Part shown: in pieces, positions 598-30,650 of the stretch
How positions within the stretch are numbered: the stretch's first letter is position 1
Layout of the letters: each line of letters opens with the position of its first letter
Origin: Longivirga aurantiaca
GTDB lineage: Bacteria; Actinomycetota; Actinomycetes; S36-B12; CAIYMF01
Reading direction: 5' to 3'
DNA: 32,000 nucleotides
Assembly (NCBI RefSeq): GCF_042660085.1
Contig: NZ_JBHSTI010000008.1
Coordinates: 2,085,604 to 2,117,603, forward strand
Position numbers and translations under genes: made by a program
The notes under the pieces: model-generated
Databases searched by the model: none
What the model was told of the DNA's origin: nothing
What the model saw: the letters and a program-made list of their open reading frames with translations, nothing else

Positions 598-3197
598 TAC
601 GACAGGACCTCGATCGCGTTGACCTGAGGGTTGTCGAGCCCGGGGACGCGACCGAACGAGATCACGACGGGGCCGGACGTGGTCACCGTGAACTCGCGGA
701 CGACGCCGCGCCTGGCACCGCCGGCCGCCGCGAAGATGTCGAACCGCGTCAGCACCTTCGTGCCGTTGATGCTCACGTCGAACGCGCGCTTGCCCGCAGC
801 AGTCCAGTAGTTCTCCGAGAAGTAGAGGCGCACCGTGTAGGTGCCGGCCTGCGGCACGGGCATGGTCCACACCATGTCCTTGCCGCCCGACACGTCGTAC
901 CGGTACGTCTGGAAGAGCGCGGCCGGCGTGCCCGCGGGCACGGACGGGTCGGAGACGTTGATGGCCGACGTCGTCGACCCCGTCTTGAGCTTGGCCGCGG
1001 CGGTGTTCGCCCAGGACGAGGGCGACGACGAGGTGTCGGCCAGCCAGCCGCCGGACAGCGCCGCGCCACCGGCGTTCACGCGGTCGATGGGCGTGCCGCT
1101 CGTGAGCGGCGGGCTCACGACGACCGTGCGCGAGGCGGAGGTCGAGCCTCCGGAGTTGGTCGCCGTGAGCGTGACCACGTACGAACCGGCCGCGGTGAAG
1201 GTGTACGAGGGGTTGCGGCTCGTGCTGGTGCCGCCGTCGCCGAAGTCCCATGCCCACGAGGTCGGGGCGCCCGTGGACGTGTCGGTGAACGAGACCGTCA
1301 CCGGAGCAGTGCCCGACGTGGTCGAGGCCGTGAACGACGCGGTCGGCGGCGTCACGACGGGCTCGGACACCACGATGGTCGCGGACGCCGACGTCGAGCC
1401 GCCCGCGTTGGTCGCTGTGAGCGTGACGGTGTACGTGCCCGGCGTGGAGTAGGTGTGCGCCGGGCTTGCGACGGTGCTGGTGCCGCCGTCGCCGAAGTCC
1501 CACGCCCACGACGTGGGCGCACCGGCGGAGGTGTCGGTGAAGGACACCGTGACCGGCGCGGTGCCCGAGGTGGTGGACGACGTGAACGACGCCGTGGGCG
1601 CGGTGACCGAGGCGGTCGTGACGACGACGGTCGTGGACGCCGACGTGGAGCCGCCGTCGTTGGTCGCGGTCAGCGTGACGGTGTACGTGCCGGGATCGGC
1701 GAAGAGGTGCGACGGGTTCTGCGCGGTGCTGGTGCCGCCGTCCCCGAACGACCACGACCACGACGTGGGACCGCCCGTGGACGTGTCGGTGAACGAGACA
1801 CCGAGCGGCGCCGCACCCGTGGTGGCCGACGGCGTGAACGACGCGGTCGGAGCGGTCGGGGCGGCGGAGCCGGAGTCGGCGTACCAGTAGCGCGGCGAGA
1901 TCTCCGTCGCAGCGAGCACAACGACCCCCGAGGTCGCCGTCGCCGGCTGCTTGCTCGAGGTCGCGTTGTTCATCGTCGCGTTCGCGACGTCGCGCAGCAC
2001 CGGCGTGCCCGCCGACGGGAAGGTGAGCGTGGAGAGCGACGCCGTCTTCTCGTAGACCGTGCCCTCGTACGCCACGACGCCTGCGGTCGAGGGGGCGGTG
2101 TAGAAGACGTGCACGAGGTCGGTGCCAGGCTCGACGACCACCATCGGCCGGGTCGCGGACTCGGCGACCGTGGCCACCGTCGCGGTCGCCCAGGTGCCGG
2201 TGGCCGGCGTGTAGACCGCAGCGAGCAGGAGCGGGTCGGTCTGGATCGGCACGGACGAGTCGTTGCGACTGGTCTTCAGCACCACGACCACGCGCCCTGC
2301 GGCGTCGCCCGGGAGCGCCCGCAGGCTGAGGTGGTCGTCGGACATGAGCGGGCCGGAGGCGACGAGCGCCGCGGTCCACGTGCTGCCGGCGTCGGTGCGG
2401 CGGGCCGACCACGTCTGCCCCGTGACCTGGTTGCTCCACGCCAGGGTCGTGACGCCGTCCGCCGACACGATGGTCGAGATGTCGTCCGAGCTGAGGGTGG
2501 TCGCGGCCGTGGACTCGGTGGCCGTCAGGTTGCTCATCGCGGGGATGAAGCTGGTGTTGAACGCGACCGACGGCGCGTCGGCCGAGCCGGAGGTCTGCGC
2601 GAGGTAGACGCGCTTGTTGAGCGTCCACGTGGCCCAGATGCGGCCGGAGTCGGTCTGCGCGATCGTCAGCGACTCCGACGAGCGCCCTGAGATGACCACC
2701 GGGAAGCCGGCGTCAGGGGTCCACGCCGTGCCGTCCCACGAGTACCGGAACAGCCGCGCGGGCTCGAGGGCGGACGTCGTGGTCGAGCTGGACGAGACCG
2801 GGTGCGAGGCCACGAACAGGTGGGTGCCGTTCCACAGCACGTCGGACTGGGTCGCACCGCGGGGATCGAGGTCGACGCCGGTGTCGACCCAGGTGCGCGA
2901 CGCCCGGTCGAGCCGGTGGATGCGGTAGCCGCCGGTGGCGGTGGACGCCATCGACGCCCACCACGAGCCGTGGGCGAACCACAGCTTGCTCTCGGGCTTG
3001 GTGGCGGTCGGGGTGGACGACGCGAAGCCGACGAAGGACTGCGCCGCCGTGCCGTAGTCGCCGGGTGCGGCGCTCGCGGGGGCGGGGAGCGCGACCGAGA
3101 CCACGACGAGGAGCGTCGTGGTCAGCGAGCCGACGACGAGTCCCACGGTCGCGCGCAGACGCGCCGCGGTCCTGGTGGTCGTCCGTCTCCCGTTCAT
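597..3197 (-). CDS. Secreted multidomain protein (paralog 1): signal peptide, ~400-aa uncharacterised N-terminal domain, 3 PKD domains, C-terminal malectin-like carbohydrate-binding domain
   Basis: This is an 866-aa ORF with high GC3. The N-terminus MNGRRTTTRTAARLRATVGLVVGSL...PAPASA has a basic n-region, a hydrophobic core and an AxA site. It carries three copies of the PKD signature (SFTDTS...W.W.FGDGGTS...Y..PGTYTVTLTATN). The C-terminus IDRVNAGG...LFQTYRYD...GTYTVRLYFSENYW...KRAFDVSINGTKVL..FDI fits the malectin (PF11721-type) pattern. Confidence 0.85.
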   Translation of the reverse strand: MNGRRTTTRTAARLRATVGLVVGSLTTTLLVVVSVALPAPASAAPGDYGTAAQSFVGFASSTPTATKPESKLWFAHGSWWASMASTATGGYRIHRLDRASRTWVDTGVDLDPRGATQSDVLWNGTHLFVASHPVSSSSTTTSALEPARLFRYSWDGTAWTPDAGFPVVISGRSSESLTIAQTDSGRIWATWTLNKRVYLAQTSGSADAPSVAFNTSFIPAMSNLTATESTAATTLSSDDISTIVSADGVTTLAWSNQVTGQTWSARRTDAGSTWTAALVASGPLMSDDHLSLRALPGDAAGRVVVVLKTSRNDSSVPIQTDPLLLAAVYTPATGTWATATVATVAESATRPMVVVEPGTDLVHVFYTAPSTAGVVAYEGTVYEKTASLSTLTFPSAGTPVLRDVANATMNNATSSKQPATATSGVVVLAATEISPRYWYADSGSAAPTAPTASFTPSATTGAAPLGVSFTDTSTGGPTSWSWSFGDGGTSTAQNPSHLFADPGTYTVTLTATNDGGSTSASTTVVVTTASVTAPTASFTSSTTSGTAPVTVSFTDTSAGAPTSWAWDFGDGGTSTVASPAHTYSTPGTYTVTLTATNAGGSTSASATIVVSEPVVTPPTASFTASTTSGTAPVTVSFTDTSTGAPTSWAWDFGDGGTSTSRNPSYTFTAAGSYVVTLTATNSGGSTSASRTVVVSPPLTSGTPIDRVNAGGAALSGGWLADTSSSPSSWANTAAAKLKTGSTTSAINVSDPSVPAGTPAALFQTYRYDVSGGKDMVWTMPVPQAGTYTVRLYFSENYWTAAGKRAFDVSINGTKVLTRFDIFAAAGGARRGVVREFTVTTSGPVVISFGRVPGLDNPQVNAIEVLS
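1100..1853 (-). repeat. Three tandem ~252-bp (84-codon) PKD-domain coding repeats inside paralog 1
   Basis: Protein residues ~451-534, 535-618 and 619-700 are near-identical units (TASFT.S.TSG.AP..VSFTDTS.G.PTSW.W.FGDGGTS...TLTATN.GGSTSAS). Boundaries are approximate. Confidence 0.8.
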
Positions 3198-6485: not shown

Positions 6486-6540
6486 AGAGGAGACGGTACG
6501 TCAGCGACGCCTCGGCGGGGTGGCATCGCCCGACACAGCG

Positions 6541-6572
6541 ACGGGCGCCCTCCCGCAGGAGGACGCCCGTCG
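6541..6572 (-). terminator. Candidate intrinsic terminator after paralog 3
   Basis: The inverted repeat gacgggcgccctcc / ggaggacgcccgtc forms a 14-bp stem with one mismatch and loop cgca. It lies 16 nt downstream of the stop at 6588. There is no clean U-tract. Confidence 0.45.
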
Positions 6573-9089: not shown

Positions 9090-9126
9090 AGGGCCCCGCT
9101 GCGCGACGTGAGCGGAGCGGGGCCCT
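9090..9126 (-). terminator. Candidate terminator hairpin after the 315-aa secreted protein gene
   Basis: agggccccgct (9090-9100) pairs with agcggggccct (9116-9126) in an 11-bp GC-rich stem just downstream of the stop at 9141. The loop is long (15 nt) and there is no U-tract. Confidence 0.35.
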
Positions 9127-10088: not shown

Positions 10089-10352
10089 GCTCCTCCTCCA
10101 ACGGGGTGCTGCGCGTCGTGCGGGTCGCACCCTTCCTGGATCGGCACGACCGTCGTGCGGGCTGGTGTGCGGAGCCCGGGTCGTTACCGTTCCGTGATCG
10201 GGGGTGAGCCCATCACGGACCCCGGAAGCACGTCTACGACCCGTCCGGTGAGCGAGACGCAGGCCTCTGACCTGCGACGACCGGTCCGCCTCGGGCCCGG
10301 TGAACGGTCCGACGGTCACCGGGAGACCCCTCACCCGTTCGGCCCAGCCGTA

Positions 10353-10830
10353 TCAGCCGTCCCACCGACCCCAGCGGCCCCGGCAGCCCTCGGCTCCCGA
10401 CCGCCGTCGGAGGAGCGGGCGGATCAGGAGCACCCGCACGACGCCGAGCACGAGGATCGCGAGCGGCACGGCGACGAGCACGACACGCGTCGAGTCGGTC
10501 GCGGAGATGTCCGCCTCGGCCAGGAGCTCCTCGGCGCGGGTCGCGTCGCGGTCCGCCGCCACCTGCTCGGGAACGACGTACGACGGCAGGATGATCGCGG
10601 TCCACGGGCTCGGGCGCCTCGAGGTCTTCCCCCATGACCACGTCGACGACCTCGCCGAGGCCGTCGAGGATCCCGGAGTCCTCCTCGGAGGGTCCGGTTC
10701 TGCGCTGCCCGGGTTCTGCGCTGCCCGGGTTCTGCGCTGCACGGGTTCTGCGCTGCCCCGATCTGCGTCCCTCGGGCCTGCGCTGCCCGGGTTCTGCGTC
10801 CCTCGGGCCTGCGCTGCTCGTACCGCTCAT
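10353..10830 (-). pseudogene. Candidate small single-pass membrane protein, frame-disrupted (or shorter gene starting at GTG 10562)
   Basis: ATG 10830 is preceded by GGAG and opens a frame through the repeat array into an acidic segment (SEEDSGILDGLGEVVDVVMGEDLEAPEPVDRD) with protein-like composition. At about 10585-10600 the protein-like, GC3-rich frame switches. It then reads IILPSYVVPEQVAADRDATRAEELLAEADISATDSTRVVLVAVPLAILVLGVVRVLLIRPLLRRR (one TM helix) up to the stop at 10353. The original frame continues Arg/Gly/Pro-rich to 10234. Alternatively, only 10353-10562 (69 aa) is coding. Confidence 0.35.
10696..10820. repeat. Tandem repeat array: four 16-bp units (ggttctgcgctgcccg) followed by two ~31-bp units (the same unit with a 15-bp insert tccctcgggcctgcg)
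   Basis: Direct reading places units at 10696-10711, 10712-10727, 10728-10743 (1 mismatch) and 10744-10759, followed by 10760-10789 and 10790-10820. The unit length is not a multiple of 3. Confidence 0.9.
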
Positions 10831-10903
10831 CCCGCTCCGCGTCGCGTCGTTCGCCCGCGCGGCAGCGGGTCGCGCCCGGGGCCGGGGCGCGGTCGTTCTC
10901 GGG

Positions 10904-12286
10904 TCAGACGCGGGTACGGCGACGGGCAGCAGGTCTCGGCCCGTCGACCGCGACGGGCAGCACTCGCGGAGCGGCGAGCCCGACGAGGTCGAGCGCCCGC
11001 TGCATGGCCTCGAGCGCGCGCGCCGGGTCGCCGATCCGCTGGTAGACCTCGGCGAGCTGCCGCCACGCCTGTGCGGCGTACCGCGAGGCGTCGGACGACT
11101 CGAGCGAGGCCGCGGCGTCCTCGAGCATGCTGACTCCTGCCGCCTCCTCCCCCAGCGCCACCGACGCGGCTCCGAGGAGCACCAGCGAGTGCGCCCGCTC
11201 GAGCCGCTGGTCGACGTCGAGGCGCTCGAGCGAGGCGGCCGCGTGGCGGCGCGCCACCTCGGGCCGGCCGAGCAGCAGCTCGGCGCGGGCGAGCTCGGAC
11301 AGCACGGGGCCGAGGAGCATCGACCCGGCGTGCTGGCGGACCTCGGGCAGCAGCGACCGCAGCTCGGCGCGCGCCTCGGTGGCGCGCGGCGGGTCCTGCT
11401 GCAGCAGGATCCAGGCCCTCGTGTAGCGCAGGCGCGTGCGGACCATGAGATCGCTGCCGACGGCCGCCAGGGCCGAGGCCTCCTCCACCAGCCGCATGCC
11501 CTCGCCGCCGAAGCCGCGCTCGGTGGCGTTGATCGCGGCGTTCCAGAGCGCCTTGGCGCGGTCGTCCGGGGATGAGTCGGCACCGAGCCGCTCGATCAGG
11601 TCGTCGAGGATCACCTGCGCGCGCACGAGGTCCCCCCGCTCGGCGTACACCCCTGCAACCGTCGAGACCAGTGCCGCGAACCCCGGTGCGTGGTCGATCC
11701 GGAGGTCGGCACCGCGACGAAGCGCCGCCTCGCCGAGGTCGACCGCGCGGGCCATGTCGCCCTGCTCGCGGTAGAGGCGCAGCAGCGAGACGCTCACGCC
11801 GACCCAGGGCAGTCGGGCGGGTGCGGACTCGGCGGCGGTACGCATCGTCTCGAGCAGCCGCAGCGCCTCGAGCAGGTGGCCCTGCCGCTCGAGCGCGGCT
11901 GCCCGCACCTCGGCGGCATGGAAGAGCTCGGGTTCGGCGACGAGGGCAGCGGCGTCGGAGAGCCGCGGCTCCCACGGCGCGAGCAGCGCCAGCGCCTCCG
12001 CCGGGTTGCCGAGCCCGAGCGCGGCCTGCGCGAGCAGGAGGTCGTGCCGAGGCCCTGCAGCGGCGTCCGGCGCGAGCGCGGTCGGGGCGACGCCGAGGCG
12101 CCCGGCGAGCAGGGCGACGACCGCGGGCGTCGGGTCGCGGCGCCCGGACTCGAGGTGGCTGACGTAGCTGGGCGAGAGGTCGTCGCCGGCGAGGGCCGTC
12201 TGCGAGAGACCTGCGGCGAGCCGGGCACGGCGCAGCCGGGAGCCGAAGGTCTCGACTCCCGCGTCGCGATCGGCTCCTCGAGCCAC
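10904..12286 (-). CDS. XRE-family HTH transcriptional regulator with long C-terminal TPR/helical-repeat domain
   Basis: The N-terminus FGSRLRRARLAAGLSQTALAGDDLSPSYVSHLESGRRDPTPAVVALLAGRLGV is a classic XRE/Cro-type HTH. About 380 aa of Ala/Leu-rich two-helix repeats follow (…EALRLLE…, …GDMARAVDLGEAAL…, …GDLVRAQVILDDL…, …AQAWRQLAEVYQRIGDPARALEAMQRALDL). I chose the start at GTG 12286, which is preceded by GAGAGGGG. The track start at 12340 is also possible. Confidence 0.8.
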   Translation of the reverse strand: MARGADRDAGVETFGSRLRRARLAAGLSQTALAGDDLSPSYVSHLESGRRDPTPAVVALLAGRLGVAPTALAPDAAAGPRHDLLLAQAALGLGNPAEALALLAPWEPRLSDAAALVAEPELFHAAEVRAAALERQGHLLEALRLLETMRTAAESAPARLPWVGVSVSLLRLYREQGDMARAVDLGEAALRRGADLRIDHAPGFAALVSTVAGVYAERGDLVRAQVILDDLIERLGADSSPDDRAKALWNAAINATERGFGGEGMRLVEEASALAAVGSDLMVRTRLRYTRAWILLQQDPPRATEARAELRSLLPEVRQHAGSMLLGPVLSELARAELLLGRPEVARRHAAASLERLDVDQRLERAHSLVLLGAASVALGEEAAGVSMLEDAAASLESSDASRYAAQAWRQLAEVYQRIGDPARALEAMQRALDLVGLAAPRVLPVAVDGPRPAARRRTRV

Positions 12287-12335
12287 GTCGACCCCTCTCG
12301 CCCACTCGGTCGAGCGGCGGCGACATCCAACCACC

Positions 12336-12370
12336 GTCACGCGCGCCCACCCCCGTGGGGCGCGCGTGAC
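12336..12370. promoter_or_regulatory. GC-rich near-perfect palindrome in the divergent regulator/peptide intergenic region (candidate operator or 5'-UTR hairpin)
   Basis: The sequence gtcacgcgcgcccac cccc gtggggcgcgcgtgac has arms of about 15-16 bp with one bulged G. It is followed by the only AT-rich stretch in the region (12381-12430), which carries direct repeats ATGACTC (12399, 12425) and TGTCAyG (12410, 12421). Confidence 0.45.
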
Positions 12371-12468
12371 GGTGGCCCTATCGAACTATGACCAGTTTAT
12401 GACTCACTTGTCACGTTGTGTGTCATGACTCGCCCGGTCGGGCGAGTCCGTCCTTCGTGGAGGTCCTC

Positions 12469-18943: not shown

Positions 18944-19390
18944 ATGACGACGATCTCCGAATCCACGCAGCTGCTTCCCACCGGGGAGACACGGCGGCAG
19001 GTCGCGCGCGAGTACGGGCTTCGCGTGCTGCTCCCCGGCCTCGGCGCCCTGCTGCTGGTCCCCATGTTCGGCCCGGTCAGCGTGGTGCTCGACTGGATCG
19101 TGTACTCGATCCTGTGGGACACCTACGGGCTGGCGAAGACGGTCTCGAACTGGGTCATGCTCGCCGACCTCGTCGTCGGCGGCGCCCTCGCGATATACGC
19201 GCTCGTCAGCACGGTCCGGCTCGGACGAGTGCATCGCGGCGACCGGCTTCATCACGCGGACAACCGCGCTGGCGCCTGGCACGTCGGATCCGTCGTGCTG
19301 CTCGTGGTGCTGATGCTTGTCCCGGTCGCGCTCGTGCTGCTCGCCTTCGCACTCGCGATGACGTTCAGCATGATGAACTCAGGCCTGTGA
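18944..19390 (+). CDS. Hypothetical integral membrane protein (148 aa)
   Basis: ATG 18944 follows GAGGAGAGAGG. There are three or four hydrophobic segments (LLPGLGALLLVPMFGPVSVVLDWIVYSILW; VMLADLVVGGALAIYALV; VVLLVVLMLVPVALVLLAFALAM) and good GC3. Confidence 0.7.
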   Translation: MTTISESTQLLPTGETRRQVAREYGLRVLLPGLGALLLVPMFGPVSVVLDWIVYSILWDTYGLAKTVSNWVMLADLVVGGALAIYALVSTVRLGRVHRGDRLHHADNRAGAWHVGSVVLLVVLMLVPVALVLLAFALAMTFSMMNSGL

Positions 19391-19465
19391 AGCCGCGGCT
19401 GCGAGCGCCGCGCGTCGGTTCCCGTCGGTCTTGCTGAAGGCGAGCGCGAACGGCACGTCAGAGCG

Positions 19466-19517
19466 CGATTTGGTAGTGGAAAGTCGGGGCAGAGCGCGAG
19501 ATTCCACTACCAAATCG
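19466..19517. repeat. 52-bp hairpin module, copy A (16-bp perfect stem, 20-nt loop)
   Basis: CGATTTGGTAGTGGAA (19466-19481) is the exact reverse complement of TTCCACTACCAAATCG (19502-19517). The loop is AGTCGGGGCAGAGCGCGAGA. Confidence 0.95.
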
Positions 19518-19654
19518 GCCATCCGCGGCGACGCCGACTGCCGGTTGCTTCTCGCGGTGTCGCCCGTGCCCGGACATGGCACAGGGACCGCTCCCTGTCG
19601 GGTGGTGCGGTCTGCCTGCGGTGCTGATCGATCCCGAGTGCGGCCTGCCCTTCC

Positions 19655-21150
19655 TCAGGGCCGGGTTCGGACGGGGACGGGGTCGGGTGGGTCGACGGTG
19701 AGCCAGGTCGGGCATCCCGGGTCGATGCCGGGGTTCTTCACGATGGTCCAGCCGCCCTCGTGCACCGCGTGGTGGTGCTTCGCGCACAGGAGCGTGAGGT
19801 TGTCGAGGTCGGTCGCGCCGCCGTGCTCCCACTCGGTGATGTGGTGGGCCTCGCACCACCCGACCGCGATCCGGCAGCCCGGGAACGCGCAGTGCCGGTC
19901 CCGCAGGTCCAGCGCCCGACGCAGGCGGGGTGGGACGGTGCGGTAGCGGCGGCCCTCGTCCCAGACGTGGTGCCGACGGCGCAGCAGCCGCGCCGAGCCG
20001 GGGTGCAGCTCGCAGCCGGCGATCGGGTGCAGCAGCCCGAGCCCGTGCTGGGCCTGGGTGTGCGCCGACCGATACGCAGCGCCGTGGCAGGGGATGCCGT
20101 CGTGGTGGTGGGCGTGCCGGTCGGGGACGGACCCGATGACGCCGATCTCGGTCACCGACGCGTCGCACAGCATCCGCTTCACCGTCTCGGCGTTGACCAG
20201 CACCGGGGACGACATCCCGGGGACGGTCATCTCGCCGGGGAACCCGGCGTCGAGGTCGTCGACCGTGGTCGCGATGGTGACGTGGGGTCGGACGCCGTGG
20301 GCGCGGCCGACCATGCCGTTGGTCAGCCACAGCTGCACGAGGTGGTTCAGCGACAGGGCGTCCTGGTGCGCGGCGGCGATCCGGCGCCGCCGCTCGTCGA
20401 CCGCGGCGTCGCCGGTGGGCTGCTCGTCCGGGGTGAGGGATCCCGATCGGTACTTCGCGTCGCGCATCCGATCGAGCAGCACCTTGAGCGCCGCGCCGTC
20501 CTCCAGGGTGAGGGCGCCCTTGATCACGAACTGGTCCCCGACCTGGGTGACGGTGAGGAACTGGCCGGCCATGGCTTCTTCCTCGCGGCGGGCCGCGGCC
20601 TCCGGGTCCAGGATCTCCTTGAGCACGGCGGCGGCGCCCGCGACCTCCTCCACCGAGCCCTGCTCGGCGATGGGGAGGAGGTAGTCCTCGCAGAACGCCC
20701 GCCACTGCACCCGGTCGTCGGCGGTCCTGTCCGCGATCGCCGCCTCGCTGCCGCGCACCAGGGCAGCCGCCAGGTCGGGGGTGACCCGGCCCGCGACCAG
20801 CGCGACCCGGGTCGCGGCATAGGACCGCAGCGTGCGGGCGCCGGAGACCACGCTGCTGGCCCTGCCCGGGGCCATGCCGGTGCGCTGGGTCAGGAACGCC
20901 GTCGTCGACCCGAACCCCGCCGACGCCAGCACCCCCGACGCGTCCAGGCGATCGACCGCGACGGTCCCCAGGGCGTGGGCGGCGTCCCGGACCGCGAACA
21001 GCTCCGCCGTCAGCTGGGCAGACCCGCCAGCTGCACCTCAGACACGGCACCCGAACCGGCCAGCACCGACGCCTCGGCAAGCAGGCCCCGCGCACCCGCG
21101 ACCAGGCGCGCGAACTCCACCGCCGGATCGACGAAGGTGGCCTGGGACAT
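19655..21150 (-). pseudogene. DUF222 domain / HNH endonuclease (13E12-repeat family type), apparently frameshifted near 21010-21030
   Basis: The C-terminal HNH motif is HCAFPGCRIAVGWCEAHHITEWEHGGATDLDNLTLLCAKHHHAVHEGGW. The body is typical DUF222 (…AFLTQRTGMAPGRA…ARTL…AEQGSVEE…). The track ORF 19655-20932 lacks the usual N-terminus. A 46-aa ORF from ATG 21150 (MSQATFVDPAVEFARLVAGARGLLAEASVLAGSGAVSEVQLAGLPS*) stops at 21010. The main frame is already open there (...SAQLTAELFAVRDAAHALGTVAVDRLDASGV...). This is consistent with a 1-nt indel or an assembly error. Confidence 0.8.
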
Positions 21151-21236
21151 GACCCCATCATGCCGACCACCTCCGACAATGCACCGACCACCGACAGGCG
21201 ATATCCACAGCAACCACAGGCGAATCCGGCCGCACC

Positions 21237-21290
21237 CCGACTTGGTAGTGGGAACTCGCGCCCTGCCGCGACTTCCCACTACCAAGTCGG
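21237..21290. repeat. 52-bp hairpin module, copy B (18-bp perfect stem, 18-nt loop), inverted relative to copy A
   Basis: CCGACTTGGTAGTGGGAA (21237-21254) is the exact reverse complement of TTCCCACTACCAAGTCGG (21273-21290). The loop CTCGCGCCCTGCCGCGAC is the reverse complement of a sequence that is 16/18 identical to the loop core of copy A. Confidence 0.95.
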
Positions 21291-21407: not shown

Positions 21408-21836
21408 ATGGCAGCCCGCACCCCGTCGCCCTCGCCCTCGCTCGATCTCGTGACCCTGCTCGTCGACGACTACGACCGGGCGATCGCATGGTTCACCGAC
21501 GTCCTCGGCTTCGAGCTGGCGGAGGACTCGCCGTCGCTCACGAACGACGGCCGCCCCAAGCGTTGGGTGGTCGTCCGCCCCTCCCCGGAGGCCACCGGGT
21601 TCCTTCTCGCCGTCGCCGATACCGAGCAGAAGCGCACGGCGCTCGGAAACCAGACCGGCGGCCGCGTCGGCTTCTTCCTGCGCGTACCTGCCTTCGAGGC
21701 CTCCCTCGCGCGGCTGCGTGCGGCGGGTACGCCGGTCCTCGGCGAACCGCGCCGTGAGGAGTACGGCCAGGTGGTGGTCGTCGTCGACCCGTTCGGCAAC
21801 CGGTGGGACCTCGTGGGGCCGCGCAGCAACCGCTGA
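21408..21836 (+). CDS. VOC (glyoxalase/bleomycin-resistance/dioxygenase) family protein
   Basis: This 142-aa protein reads LDLVTLLVDDYDRAIAWFTDVLGFELAEDS...RWVVVRP......LLAVAD...GRVGFFLRV.DFEA...L...G......P.....G.V.V..DP.GN.W.L, the typical paired beta-alpha-beta-beta-beta VOC pattern. Confidence 0.85.
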   Translation: MAARTPSPSPSLDLVTLLVDDYDRAIAWFTDVLGFELAEDSPSLTNDGRPKRWVVVRPSPEATGFLLAVADTEQKRTALGNQTGGRVGFFLRVPAFEASLARLRAAGTPVLGEPRREEYGQVVVVVDPFGNRWDLVGPRSNR

Positions 21837-26234: not shown

Positions 26235-26250
26235 CGCAGCACCGCACGCA

Positions 26251-26292
26251 CGAAGGGCGGGCCAGGACCTCACGGTCCTGGCCCGCCCTTCG
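26251..26292. terminator. Bidirectional intrinsic terminator hairpin between convergent genes
   Basis: There is a perfect 19-bp stem, cgaagggcgggccaggacc (26251-26269) pairing with ggtcctggcccgcccttcg (26274-26292), and loop tcac. It sits between the stop at 26234 (+) and the stop at 26318 (-). Confidence 0.75.
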
Positions 26293-26317
26293 TGCTAGAG
26301 GCGTGCTCCCCTCGACG

Positions 26318-30618: not shown

Positions 30619-30650
30619 CGAAGGCGCCACCCCGGAGGATGGCGCCTTCG
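30619..30650. terminator. Hairpin between the GGDEF-EAL remnant and tRNA-Asn
   Basis: cgaaggcgcca (30619-30629) pairs with tggcgccttcg (30640-30650) in an 11-bp perfect stem with a 10-nt loop. Confidence 0.55.

Follow-up and report, generated by a model that had tools for sequence, protein, structure and literature searches.

Hairpins bracketing a REP13E12-type DUF222-HNH unit in Longivirga aurantiaca as probable members of a dispersed, REP-like repeat family

Why would a single nuclease gene stand between two inverted copies of the same hairpin? This question is raised by a stretch of 32,000 nucleotides from the genome of Longivirga aurantiaca (hereafter, the window), in which the only gene between hairpin modules A and B (Table 1) encodes a DUF222-HNH protein of the REP13E12 type. 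In the original prediction, A and B were terminal inverted repeats of a mobile element that transposes through single-stranded DNA. Comparison with other loci leads to another answer. It is reasonably probable that A and B belong to a dispersed, low-copy, REP-like family of palindromic intergenic hairpins of about 52 bp, which brackets the HNH unit in this lineage only. Retrieved loci are referred to by L numbers.

Table 1. Features of the window around the two hairpin modules
Feature	Position	Strand	Remarks
Small membrane-protein ORF	18944..19390	+	no Pfam family; convergent with the HNH gene
Hairpin module A	19466..19517	.	covariance model 71.6 bits
Conserved 3' tail of the HNH unit	19527..19654	-	homology among copies stops at 19527-19537
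DUF222-HNH (REP13E12-type) gene	19655..21150	-	ATG at 21150-21148
Conserved 5' leader of the HNH unit	21151..21236	-	common to all paralogous and orthologous copies
Hairpin module B	21237..21290	.	covariance model 81.1 bits
Glyoxalase-family gene	21408..21836	+	divergent from the HNH gene

The structure of the two modules stands as first described. When rechecked in the sequence, copy A has a perfect stem of 16 bp with a loop of 20 nt and copy B a perfect stem of 18 bp, and pairing of B can be extended to 23 pairs with 1 mismatch and a 6-nt loop. Because their arms are 87% complementary over 53 nt (equivalent to the 45 of 52 identical positions of the original prediction), the copies lie in opposite orientations, and the loop of B is the reverse complement of the loop of A, with 16 of 18 positions matching. 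Both compensatory pairs were also found, T19469/A19514 in A corresponding to C/G in B, and A19480/T19503 in A to G/C in B. Module A has an AT-rich outer stem, CGATTTGGTAGTGG, and carries GCAGAGCGCG in its loop. All 4 occurrences of the core word TTGGTAGTGGRAA in the 32-kb window fall inside A or B, against 0.13 expected by chance, and none of 100 shuffles got to 4. Folding z-scores of A and B range from -6.6 to -8.9, with no equally well folded sequence among 200 shuffles. When the entire window was scanned with the covariance model and filters off, A and B were the sole matches (71-81 bits) and the runner-up scored 13 bits.

No T-run lies 3' of the stem of A or B on either strand, and a simple scan of the window for canonical terminators and promoters called neither hairpin; a terminator or stabiliser role can therefore only be proposed. 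An Rfam 15 search of the window at gathering score returned 2 tRNAs and no family at A or B, and the sole hit at a permissive E-value, to a miRNA precursor, was discarded as spurious (27 bits against a gathering score of 67). Outside B, a short minus-strand ORF whose end lies 13 bp from the module was rejected as a gene, since it lacks a start codon, matches no Pfam family and is not conserved in L048. The window also contains further long hairpins of unique sequence (6539-6572, 9090-9126, 12331-12375, 26248-26295 and 30619-30650).

The gene between the modules contains DUF222 and HNH domains, as claimed (Pfam: DUF222 1.1e-12, HNH 3e-6), and the frameshift suspected near 21010-21030 corresponds to one deletion of 1 bp at ~21016 when the gene is compared with intact homologues. 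Both domains are held by the ORF downstream of the deletion (19655-20932, 425 aa). The window protein is 90% identical to two Longivirga aurantiaca proteins, and the His and Cys residues of the HNH motif are invariant in an alignment of 76 sequences. Genes of this type are multicopy, with two copies in GCA_038316965.1 (L047, L048) and the two proteins in L. aurantiaca, and close copies of the unit occur at three or more different loci. Comparison of HNH copies across three loci delimits a repeat unit of ~1.7 kb (window ~19527/19537 to 21236), composed of the gene, a leader of ~86 bp in which GGAGGTG precedes the ATG, and a tail of ~120-130 bp with a small conserved hairpin (19581-19598). Homology among paralogues at other loci starts in the leader. 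Both modules lie just outside this common unit: B abuts the 5' end of the leader with a gap of 0 bp, whereas A is 10-20 bp outside the 3' end of the unit and 75 bp past the stop codon of the + strand membrane-protein ORF, between convergent genes. As judged from these alignments, the DUF222-HNH gene is probably a separate REP13E12-type unit with its own leader and tail, and the hairpins are probably not its transposition ends. Sequence-defined ends are thus now given for one clade of REP13E12-type units. In L049, an element with a serine recombinase is integrated within the DUF222-HNH gene, much as phiRv1 integrates in REP13E12.

The flanking genes inform on the history of the unit. In the syntenic loci L044, L045 and L048, identity to the window is 95, 91 and 89% for DUF6421, 94, 91 and 85% for ADH, and 88, 81 and 77% for the HNH gene. 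Since the HNH gene diverges in the same order as its neighbours, vertical inheritance at the DUF6421...ADH locus is indicated. At a different locus, the L046 copy is 89.6% identical to the window gene, compared with 88.5% for the syntenic orthologue L044; with L046 as close as L044, the unit must also have moved or been converted between loci. The membrane-protein ORF is missing from L044, L045 and L048, and the glyoxalase orthologue of L044 is cut off exactly at the outer edge of the L044 hairpin.

Modules are unevenly distributed among HNH copies. Upstream of the gene, a module was found in 3 of 7 close homologues (77-92% identity), all at one syntenic locus, and downstream in 1 of 8 close copies, namely the window itself. 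Near the HNH gene, covariance-model scans with filters off detected no module in L046, L047, L048, L049, L072 or L073, nor was there one downstream of the gene in L044, L045, L072 or L073. Rather than co-varying with the gene at the orthologous locus, the hairpins vary independently of it: two in the window, one plus one decayed (cmsearch E = 0.006) in L044, one in L045 and none in L048. Upstream modules of this HNH copy are thus seen at three of four syntenic loci (window, L044 and L045), at two positions, those of L044 and L045 being ~60 bp further out than that of the window, and in both loop orientations. Because the loop of the L044 upstream hairpin is flipped relative to B, the inversion of A and B carries little weight. 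No further module is present in ~100 kb of HNH-lineage sequence outside the neighbourhood of the HNH gene, so that the local enrichment beside it, in loci picked for carrying the gene, is real; ~26 kb of sequence from other lineages contains ~2 extra modules.

Wider searches recovered the module apart from the nuclease. Species-representative genomes scanned for TTGGTAGTGG-N14-30-CCACTACCAA gave 43 hits, most of them due to chance or to an unrelated hairpin family of Acidobacteria. True relatives were confined to one Actinomycetes MAG (L037, L041), L032 and L042 being a more distant subtype, and none of the 43 loci gave a DUF222 match with tblastn. A metagenome scan yielded two true family members only (L059, L067), with no DUF222 gene in either locus. 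Viral contigs gave 0 hits to the module, and no viral relatives of DUF222-HNH were found; BLAST against plasmids and phages returned HNH-motif matches alone. Scans for the exact core gave 2 copies in the sole species-representative genome containing them and 2 in the JGI metagenome collection. The hosts of the family are Sporichthyaceae-like and other high-GC Actinomycetes.

The same module thus occurs at at least five HNH-free sites (L037, L041, L059/L069/L071, L069b/L071b and L067), directly 3' of the stop codons of ordinary genes and mostly between convergent genes; in L037, L041, L059 and L067 it is tightly enclosed by the stop codons of a convergent pair. At a carbonic-anhydrase locus, L059, L069/L070 and L071 share one module site. 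A second L069 module, 2 kb away, is orthologous to a copy in L071 and differs from it by three double compensatory changes in the outer stem. Modules are denser in L069, L071 and L037, which have no HNH gene within 5-8 kb. Altogether, the module was found, much like a REP, at nine or more sites at unrelated loci (orthologous sites counted once): eight of nine lie no more than 75 bp from a stop codon (0-75 bp, and 0-40 bp at every one except A), and five of those eight lie between convergent genes.

Selection on hairpin pairing, first suggested by the two covarying pairs of A and B, finds much stronger support in an alignment of 14 modules, where 13 of 23 pairs have undergone double changes. 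The family has a conserved outer stem, CGAYTTGGTAGTGG...CCACTACCAARTCG, whose AT content is unusually high for these genomes, and the inner stem and loop vary in sequence with pairing retained. Among the 14 modules, the share of paired cells is 88.5%, compared with 75% for shuffles and 29-42% for slid controls, and none of 500 shuffles matched the observed value on any of five measures. Compensatory changes also distinguish orthologous module copies. Because the modules evolve by compensatory substitutions, the folded hairpin appears to be what selection sees, and the best reading of the alignment is that the structure is under selection and acts as RNA or single-stranded DNA. The loci compared show that modules are inherited at orthologous sites. 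Nevertheless, identity between the orthologues L069b and L071b is only 63%, whereas A is 87-88% identical to the HNH-free copies L059, L067 and L069b, and 87% to B; A is therefore not specifically akin to B. Since non-orthologous copies across genomes are more alike than orthologous ones, modules may have spread or been refreshed as miniature REP-like repeats.

If transcribed at the 3' ends of genes, the hairpins would most likely serve as barriers at the ends of transcription units. Such a role would not depend on a U-tract, by analogy with what has been proposed for REP elements and for the 'I-shaped' hairpins of actinobacteria. Around the HNH gene, they would mark the boundaries between the unit and the neighbouring genes, just outside the unit. 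Some observations fit this REP-like reading less well, namely the closeness of both hairpins to the unit ends, the recurrence of an upstream module at three of the four syntenic loci at two positions, the local enrichment beside the HNH gene, and the truncation of the L044 glyoxalase gene at the hairpin edge. Should it be right, these hairpins form an undescribed REP-like family of structure-constrained elements in high-GC Actinomycetes, recognizable by their location directly after stop codons and by a stem that is conserved and AT-rich in its outer part and covaries in its inner part. This would be of use for annotation and for the study of transcript ends in these organisms, without being surprising.

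One alternative is that a module belongs to the unit. The ancestral REP13E12-type unit would then have had a 5' hairpin where B now lies, which has stayed intact in the window but decayed elsewhere; A, like the outer hairpins of L044 and L045, would be an unrelated resident of a neighbouring gene. Indeed, B aligns in the columns of a segment of ~55 bp common to L044, L046, L047 and L049; with the module model, the inner segment of L044 reaches 20.9 bits (E = 0.006), and in alignment to B the L047 segment, which folds like a module (TTGGGC...GCCCAA), outscores 97.7% of background windows. However, a search for decayed modules upstream of every paralogue gave a signal only in these two (empirical p ~0.02 for L047), and the remaining B-equivalent segments, like all fold z-scores, are at background level. 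L045, L046, L048 and L049 lack significant similarity: background windows score as high with a frequency of 0.22-0.72 for L046, L048 and L049, covariance-model hits in L046 and L049 reach only E = 1-10, and the test window of L045 overlapped that locus's own outer hairpin, so that its score is uninformative on the B position. B-equivalent segments, L045 included, fold no better than shuffles (z -1.0 to +0.95). Moreover, the sole intact and perfectly paired copy is in the genome with the frameshifted gene, which decay elsewhere alone hardly explains. A unit-borne origin of B is accordingly considered unlikely.

Less likely again is a functional partnership of the RAYT/REP or homing type, in which the HNH nuclease recognizes or nicks the hairpins and so mobilizes or seeds them, or in which the unit inserts beside them; hairpins piling up at the unit borders would be the footprint of nuclease activity. 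Such a partnership would account for two hairpins abutting boundaries that were defined from paralogues, for modules recurring upstream of this HNH copy (in the window, in L045 and, as a tandem of which one is decayed, in L044), for the ~100 kb of the same lineages free of other modules, and for the L044 glyoxalase breakpoint. Furthermore, inverted REPs typically lie on either side of RAYT genes (PMC3733652, PMC2817692), and the conserved AT-rich outer stem resembles a protein-recognition element. Against it, the paralogues L046, L047, L049, L072 and L073 and the syntenic L048 have no module, loci with denser modules have no HNH gene nearby, and the window gene is frameshifted. The three loci with upstream modules are a single syntenic locus and therefore represent few independent events, and a structural model, with matches for the HNH domain only, gives no hint that DUF222 would bind hairpins. 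It is more doubtful still that the modules have their cognate enzyme in the DUF222-HNH nuclease of the DUF6421...ADH locus, which would then be either an HNH-based, non-tyrosine counterpart of RAYT/REPIN systems or a hairpin-targeting homing unit; if so, this would provide the first defined DNA substrate for REP13E12-type genes, whose regions have been described as lacking 'defined biological function' (PMC13061034). Some functional link between hairpins and nuclease, although improbable, is kept in consideration because the hairpins abut the unit ends and recur at the locus.

The model that opened this study, in which A and B are the terminal hairpin ends of an element moving like IS200/IS605, has scarcely any probability left: it draws on the inverted placement of A and B immediately around one unit and on the movement or conversion of that unit between loci, but copies of the unit at other loci lack the hairpins, homology between copies stops inside them, modules occur by themselves at the ends of ordinary genes, the loop of L044 is flipped relative to B and A is no closer to B than to HNH-free copies, no Y1 HUH transposase (TnpA, PF01797) is present among the genes of the retrieved loci, and no target-site duplication was found, the outer flanks on the left of A (GTCAGAGCG) and on the right of B (CGGGGCCAT) having no direct repeat in common. 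The sole 12-nt direct repeat nearby (20867, 21291) has one copy within the gene and is compatible with chance. Because the small repeat family to which A and B belong is also found behind ordinary genes far from any nuclease gene, it is improbable that the two hairpins delimit a mobile nuclease element. Of the three outcomes that the original prediction named as fatal to it, two were observed, namely close DUF222-HNH copies that lack the module and independent variation of hairpins and gene at the orthologous locus. The terminal-end model is thereby largely refuted, and an attractive but wrong lead on the movement of REP13E12-type genes is removed.

In IS200/IS605 elements, hairpins likewise lie near the ends of a nuclease-encoding unit, but they are subterminal, imperfect and strand-specific, and are not inverted copies of each other; A and B, by contrast, are perfect palindromes outside the conserved unit that also occur alone elsewhere, and the window element has no Y1 HUH TnpA. 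With mycobacterial REP13E12, the window gene shares the DUF222 and HNH architecture and the multicopy state within genomes. The host is a Sporichthyaceae-like actinomycete and not a mycobacterium, and the mycobacterial units are not known to be accompanied by a hairpin module. Similarity among paralogues suggests gene conversion, as in M. tuberculosis, where REP13E12 also holds a putative prophage attachment site (PMC13061034).

The likeness to REPs and REPINs lies in short extragenic palindromes that are repeated at many loci and whose stem sequence varies through complementary changes, in the GTAG word within the module stem (TTGGTAGTGG), and in placement, since REPs are found downstream of ORFs, between convergent or co-directional genes (PMC3733652). 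The inverted copies bracketing a nuclease gene recall RAYT loci (PMC3733652, PMC2817692). Nevertheless, the GTAG of the module is paired with CTAC inside the stem, on both arms, whereas the REP tag is an unpaired GTAG/CGTC at one end (PMC3733652); the stem measures 16-23 bp as opposed to 6-13 bp in classical REPs, copy number is apparently low in the exact-core scans, as opposed to the more than 100 copies per genome of a typical REP, no RAYT (Y1 transposase) is present at any module locus, and the text of the REP survey does not mention Actinomycetota, the host phylum here. Neither A nor B conforms to a canonical intrinsic terminator, with its GC-rich stem followed by a U-tract. Finally, the 'I-shaped' hairpins of high-GC actinobacteria are similarly long and stable, lie directly after stop codons, often between convergent genes, and have no U-tract, and the window itself contains several other long hairpins of unique sequence; the module differs from them in being a repeated family, which shares its AT-rich outer stem across loci and genomes instead of being unique to one gene.

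The hairpin modules A and B, which bracket a minus-strand gene encoding DUF222 and HNH domains, most likely belong to a dispersed and apparently low-copy family of palindromic elements whose structure is constrained. Members of this family are characterized by an AT-rich, conserved outer stem, a covarying inner stem and a typical site directly after stop codons. In the window, a core word occurs four times, always within A or B (0.13 expected). The folding energies of the two modules lie 6.6-8.9 standard deviations under those of shuffles, and a covariance model built after their initial description scored them at 71-81 bits in a scan of the 32 kb, the rest of the window reaching at most 13 bits. 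The original prediction had described inverted copies with compensatory stem substitutions; A and B are indeed 87% complementary over 53 nt, hence inverted relative to each other, and both compensatory pair differences were found in the sequence. No Rfam family was matched by hairpins of this type, and a canonical terminator scan made no call at them; a U-tract is absent. A 21-nt stretch left of A (19448-19468, GAACGGCACGTCAGAGCGCGA) is 76% identical to the inner arm and loop of A (19479-19499, GAAAGTCGGGGCAGAGCGCGA) and may, from this similarity, be the remnant of an older, overwritten module. Further long GC-rich hairpins in the window (6539-6572, 9090-9126, 12331-12375, 26248-26295 and 30619-30650), with stems of 13-22 bp and a sequence unique to each, may be of the 'I-shaped' gene-end type.

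Hairpin modules, limits of the DUF222-HNH unit and related loci (plain coordinates are window positions)
Feature	Location	Description
Module A	19466-19517	perfect 16-bp stem, 20-nt loop
Module B	21237-21290	perfect 18-bp stem; 23 pairs with one mismatch when extended
Leader of DUF222-HNH unit	21151-21236	~86 bp, conserved
Tail of DUF222-HNH unit	19527-19654	~120-130 bp, conserved; small conserved hairpin at 19581-19598
Second module, orthologues	L069 6494-6555; L071 3352-3413	
HNH loci L044, L045, L048		syntenic with the window, order DUF6421 ... HNH ... zinc-ADH
HNH loci L046, L049		HNH copy after csrA, flagellar cluster
HNH locus L047		second HNH copy, same assembly as L048
HNH loci L072, L073/L074		contig start inside HNH gene

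In flank alignments, the leader common to all HNH copies starts at 21236, the base adjoining B, and the common sequence downstream of the stop codon ends at 19527-19537, 10-20 bp short of A. A and B therefore lie just outside the HNH unit. Leader and tail are present in copies at at least three different loci and, judged from these alignments, the ends of this clade's unit are sequence-defined. The suspected frameshift is explained by the loss of a single base pair at about 21016, seen against intact homologues; this loss is either genuine or an artefact of assembly.

The closest proteins are two Longivirga aurantiaca (Sporichthyaceae) paralogues (90% identity each), followed by a metagenomic clade (77-92%) for which nine loci were retrieved. 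Identities to the window in L044, L045 and L048 are 94, 91 and 85% for ADH, 95, 91 and 89% for DUF6421 and 88, 81 and 77% for HNH; this shared order of divergence argues that the HNH copy at the DUF6421...ADH locus was inherited vertically. The HNH gene of L046 lies elsewhere and shares 89.6% identity with that of the window, a similarity that suggests conversion or movement among HNH paralogues. Between DUF6421 and ADH, each of the four syntenic genomes has its own rearrangement. In L049 (7300-11900; GCA_964269125.1, CAXWMM010000001.1), a 4.4-kb element carrying a large serine recombinase (10343-11740) and a REP_ORF2-G2P gene is inserted within the DUF222-HNH gene, where it splits the codons of the HNH motif (DLDN|LTLLC); beyond it, from about 11775, follow the C-terminal part of the gene and the 3' tail of the unit. 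We take this insertion to parallel the integration of phiRv1 into REP13E12 of M. tuberculosis.

Modules at HNH loci were sought by a generic hairpin search and by covariance-model searches with filters off. In L044, a module that is somewhat degraded lies about 190 bp before the ATG, next to a second, weak copy (20.9 bits, E = 0.006); L045 has a single module, with the same outer position as in L044 and a different inner stem. No module was detected at L046, L047, L048, L049, L072 or L073. Upstream modules thus accompany three of seven HNH copies, all at one syntenic locus, and a downstream module one of eight, that of the window. At the position of B in paralogues, traces of a decayed module are marginal in L047 (p ~0.02) and at background in the other copies, and the folding of all these segments is no better than that of shuffles. 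Relative to the gene, the L044 loop points the other way from that of B. Since loop orientation can thus vary, the inversion of A and B no longer weighs in favour of terminal repeats.

The HNH nuclease may be linked to the hairpins, in the manner of RAYTs or by homing next to them, but this appears improbable. In favour of such a link, both A and B abut the ends of the unit, modules stand upstream of the same HNH copy, at two positions in all, at three of its four syntenic loci, none is contained in about 100 kb of further sequence from the HNH lineages, and in L044 (5780-5812) the break in a glyoxalase orthologue, which lacks its first ~56 codons, coincides exactly with the module's outer edge. 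Against it, the module-bearing HNH loci are not independent of one another, and modules are missing from several close HNH paralogues. The predicted protein structure (pLDDT 84.8), with solved relatives for the HNH domain only, is no help on this link.

The dispersed family extends to loci without the gene. Pattern scans revealed true members in one Actinomycetes MAG (L037, L041) and on two metagenome contigs (L059, L067), and tblastn found no DUF222 at these loci; in all four, convergent genes end on either side of the module, which takes up the short spacer between their stop codons. At the carbonic-anhydrase locus of L059, the site is the same in L069/L070 (neighbour gene 91% identical) and L071 (86%), and the orthologues differ by paired substitutions, for instance TTTGG/CCAAA to TTCGG/CCGAA. 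L069 has a second module 2 kb off, directly 3' of a stop codon, with an orthologue in L071; CGATGTGG...CCACATCG in the former and CGAGCCGG...CCGGCTCG in the latter differ at three pairs of the outer stem, both bases having changed in a compensatory way. Accompanied by hairpins that lie outside the unit, are missing at several other copies and are found without HNH, the gene and its flanking modules do not support the initial proposal of an IS200/IS605-like mobile element with A and B as its terminal inverted repeats.

Other hairpins were also noted. In L037, a different long hairpin (3037-3096, CCCCGACATATGAGGAAGGGCCGGCC...) directly follows the 3' end of an apparent tRNA gene and has the layout of the module, CCGA followed by an AT-rich outer and a GC-rich inner stem. 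A separate repeated hairpin, roughly (T)TGGTAGTGG-GTCAGTTTGAAA-CTGAC-CCACTACCA(A), occurs in Acidobacteria (Terriglobales, Bryobacterales, Pyrinomonadaceae) and metagenome contigs of 55-60% GC (L001, L004, L010, L022, L023, L025, L053, L057, L058, L060-L062, L065, L068). Its outer-stem word is shared with the actinobacterial module, which could reflect coincidence or a common recognition motif.

In an alignment of 14 modules, 88.5% of cells are paired (shuffles, 75%; slid controls, 29-42%), and double changes occur at 13 of 23 pairs, so that the selection on hairpin structure proposed from A and B is borne out and strengthened. The variable inner stem keeps its pairing, which shows the folded form (RNA or single-stranded DNA) to be the functional state. 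A is 87-88% identical to L067, L059 and the second L069 module, all of them HNH-free, non-orthologous copies from other genomes, and 87% identical to B; by this comparison, A and B do not form a pair of their own. The second modules of L069 and L071, although orthologous, are only 63% identical. Taken together, these values argue for a consensus that is renewed or constrained, as for a REP-like repeat, and suggest either that sites already occupied have their copies replaced or refreshed, or that constraint on the consensus is strong. Where transcription units end, such hairpins may serve as 3' barriers, and they may multiply as miniature mobile repeats.

Among known systems, IS200/IS605 elements are not matched, either in their transposase or in hairpins that travel with the element. 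The window gene is a typical member of the REP13E12 family, for which one study records no defined function (PMC13061034). Although the modules lack the unpaired GTAG or CGTC tag that defines REPs, REP/REPIN sequences are their closest analogue, in position, palindromy, stem covariation and the bracketing of a nuclease gene (PMC3733652).
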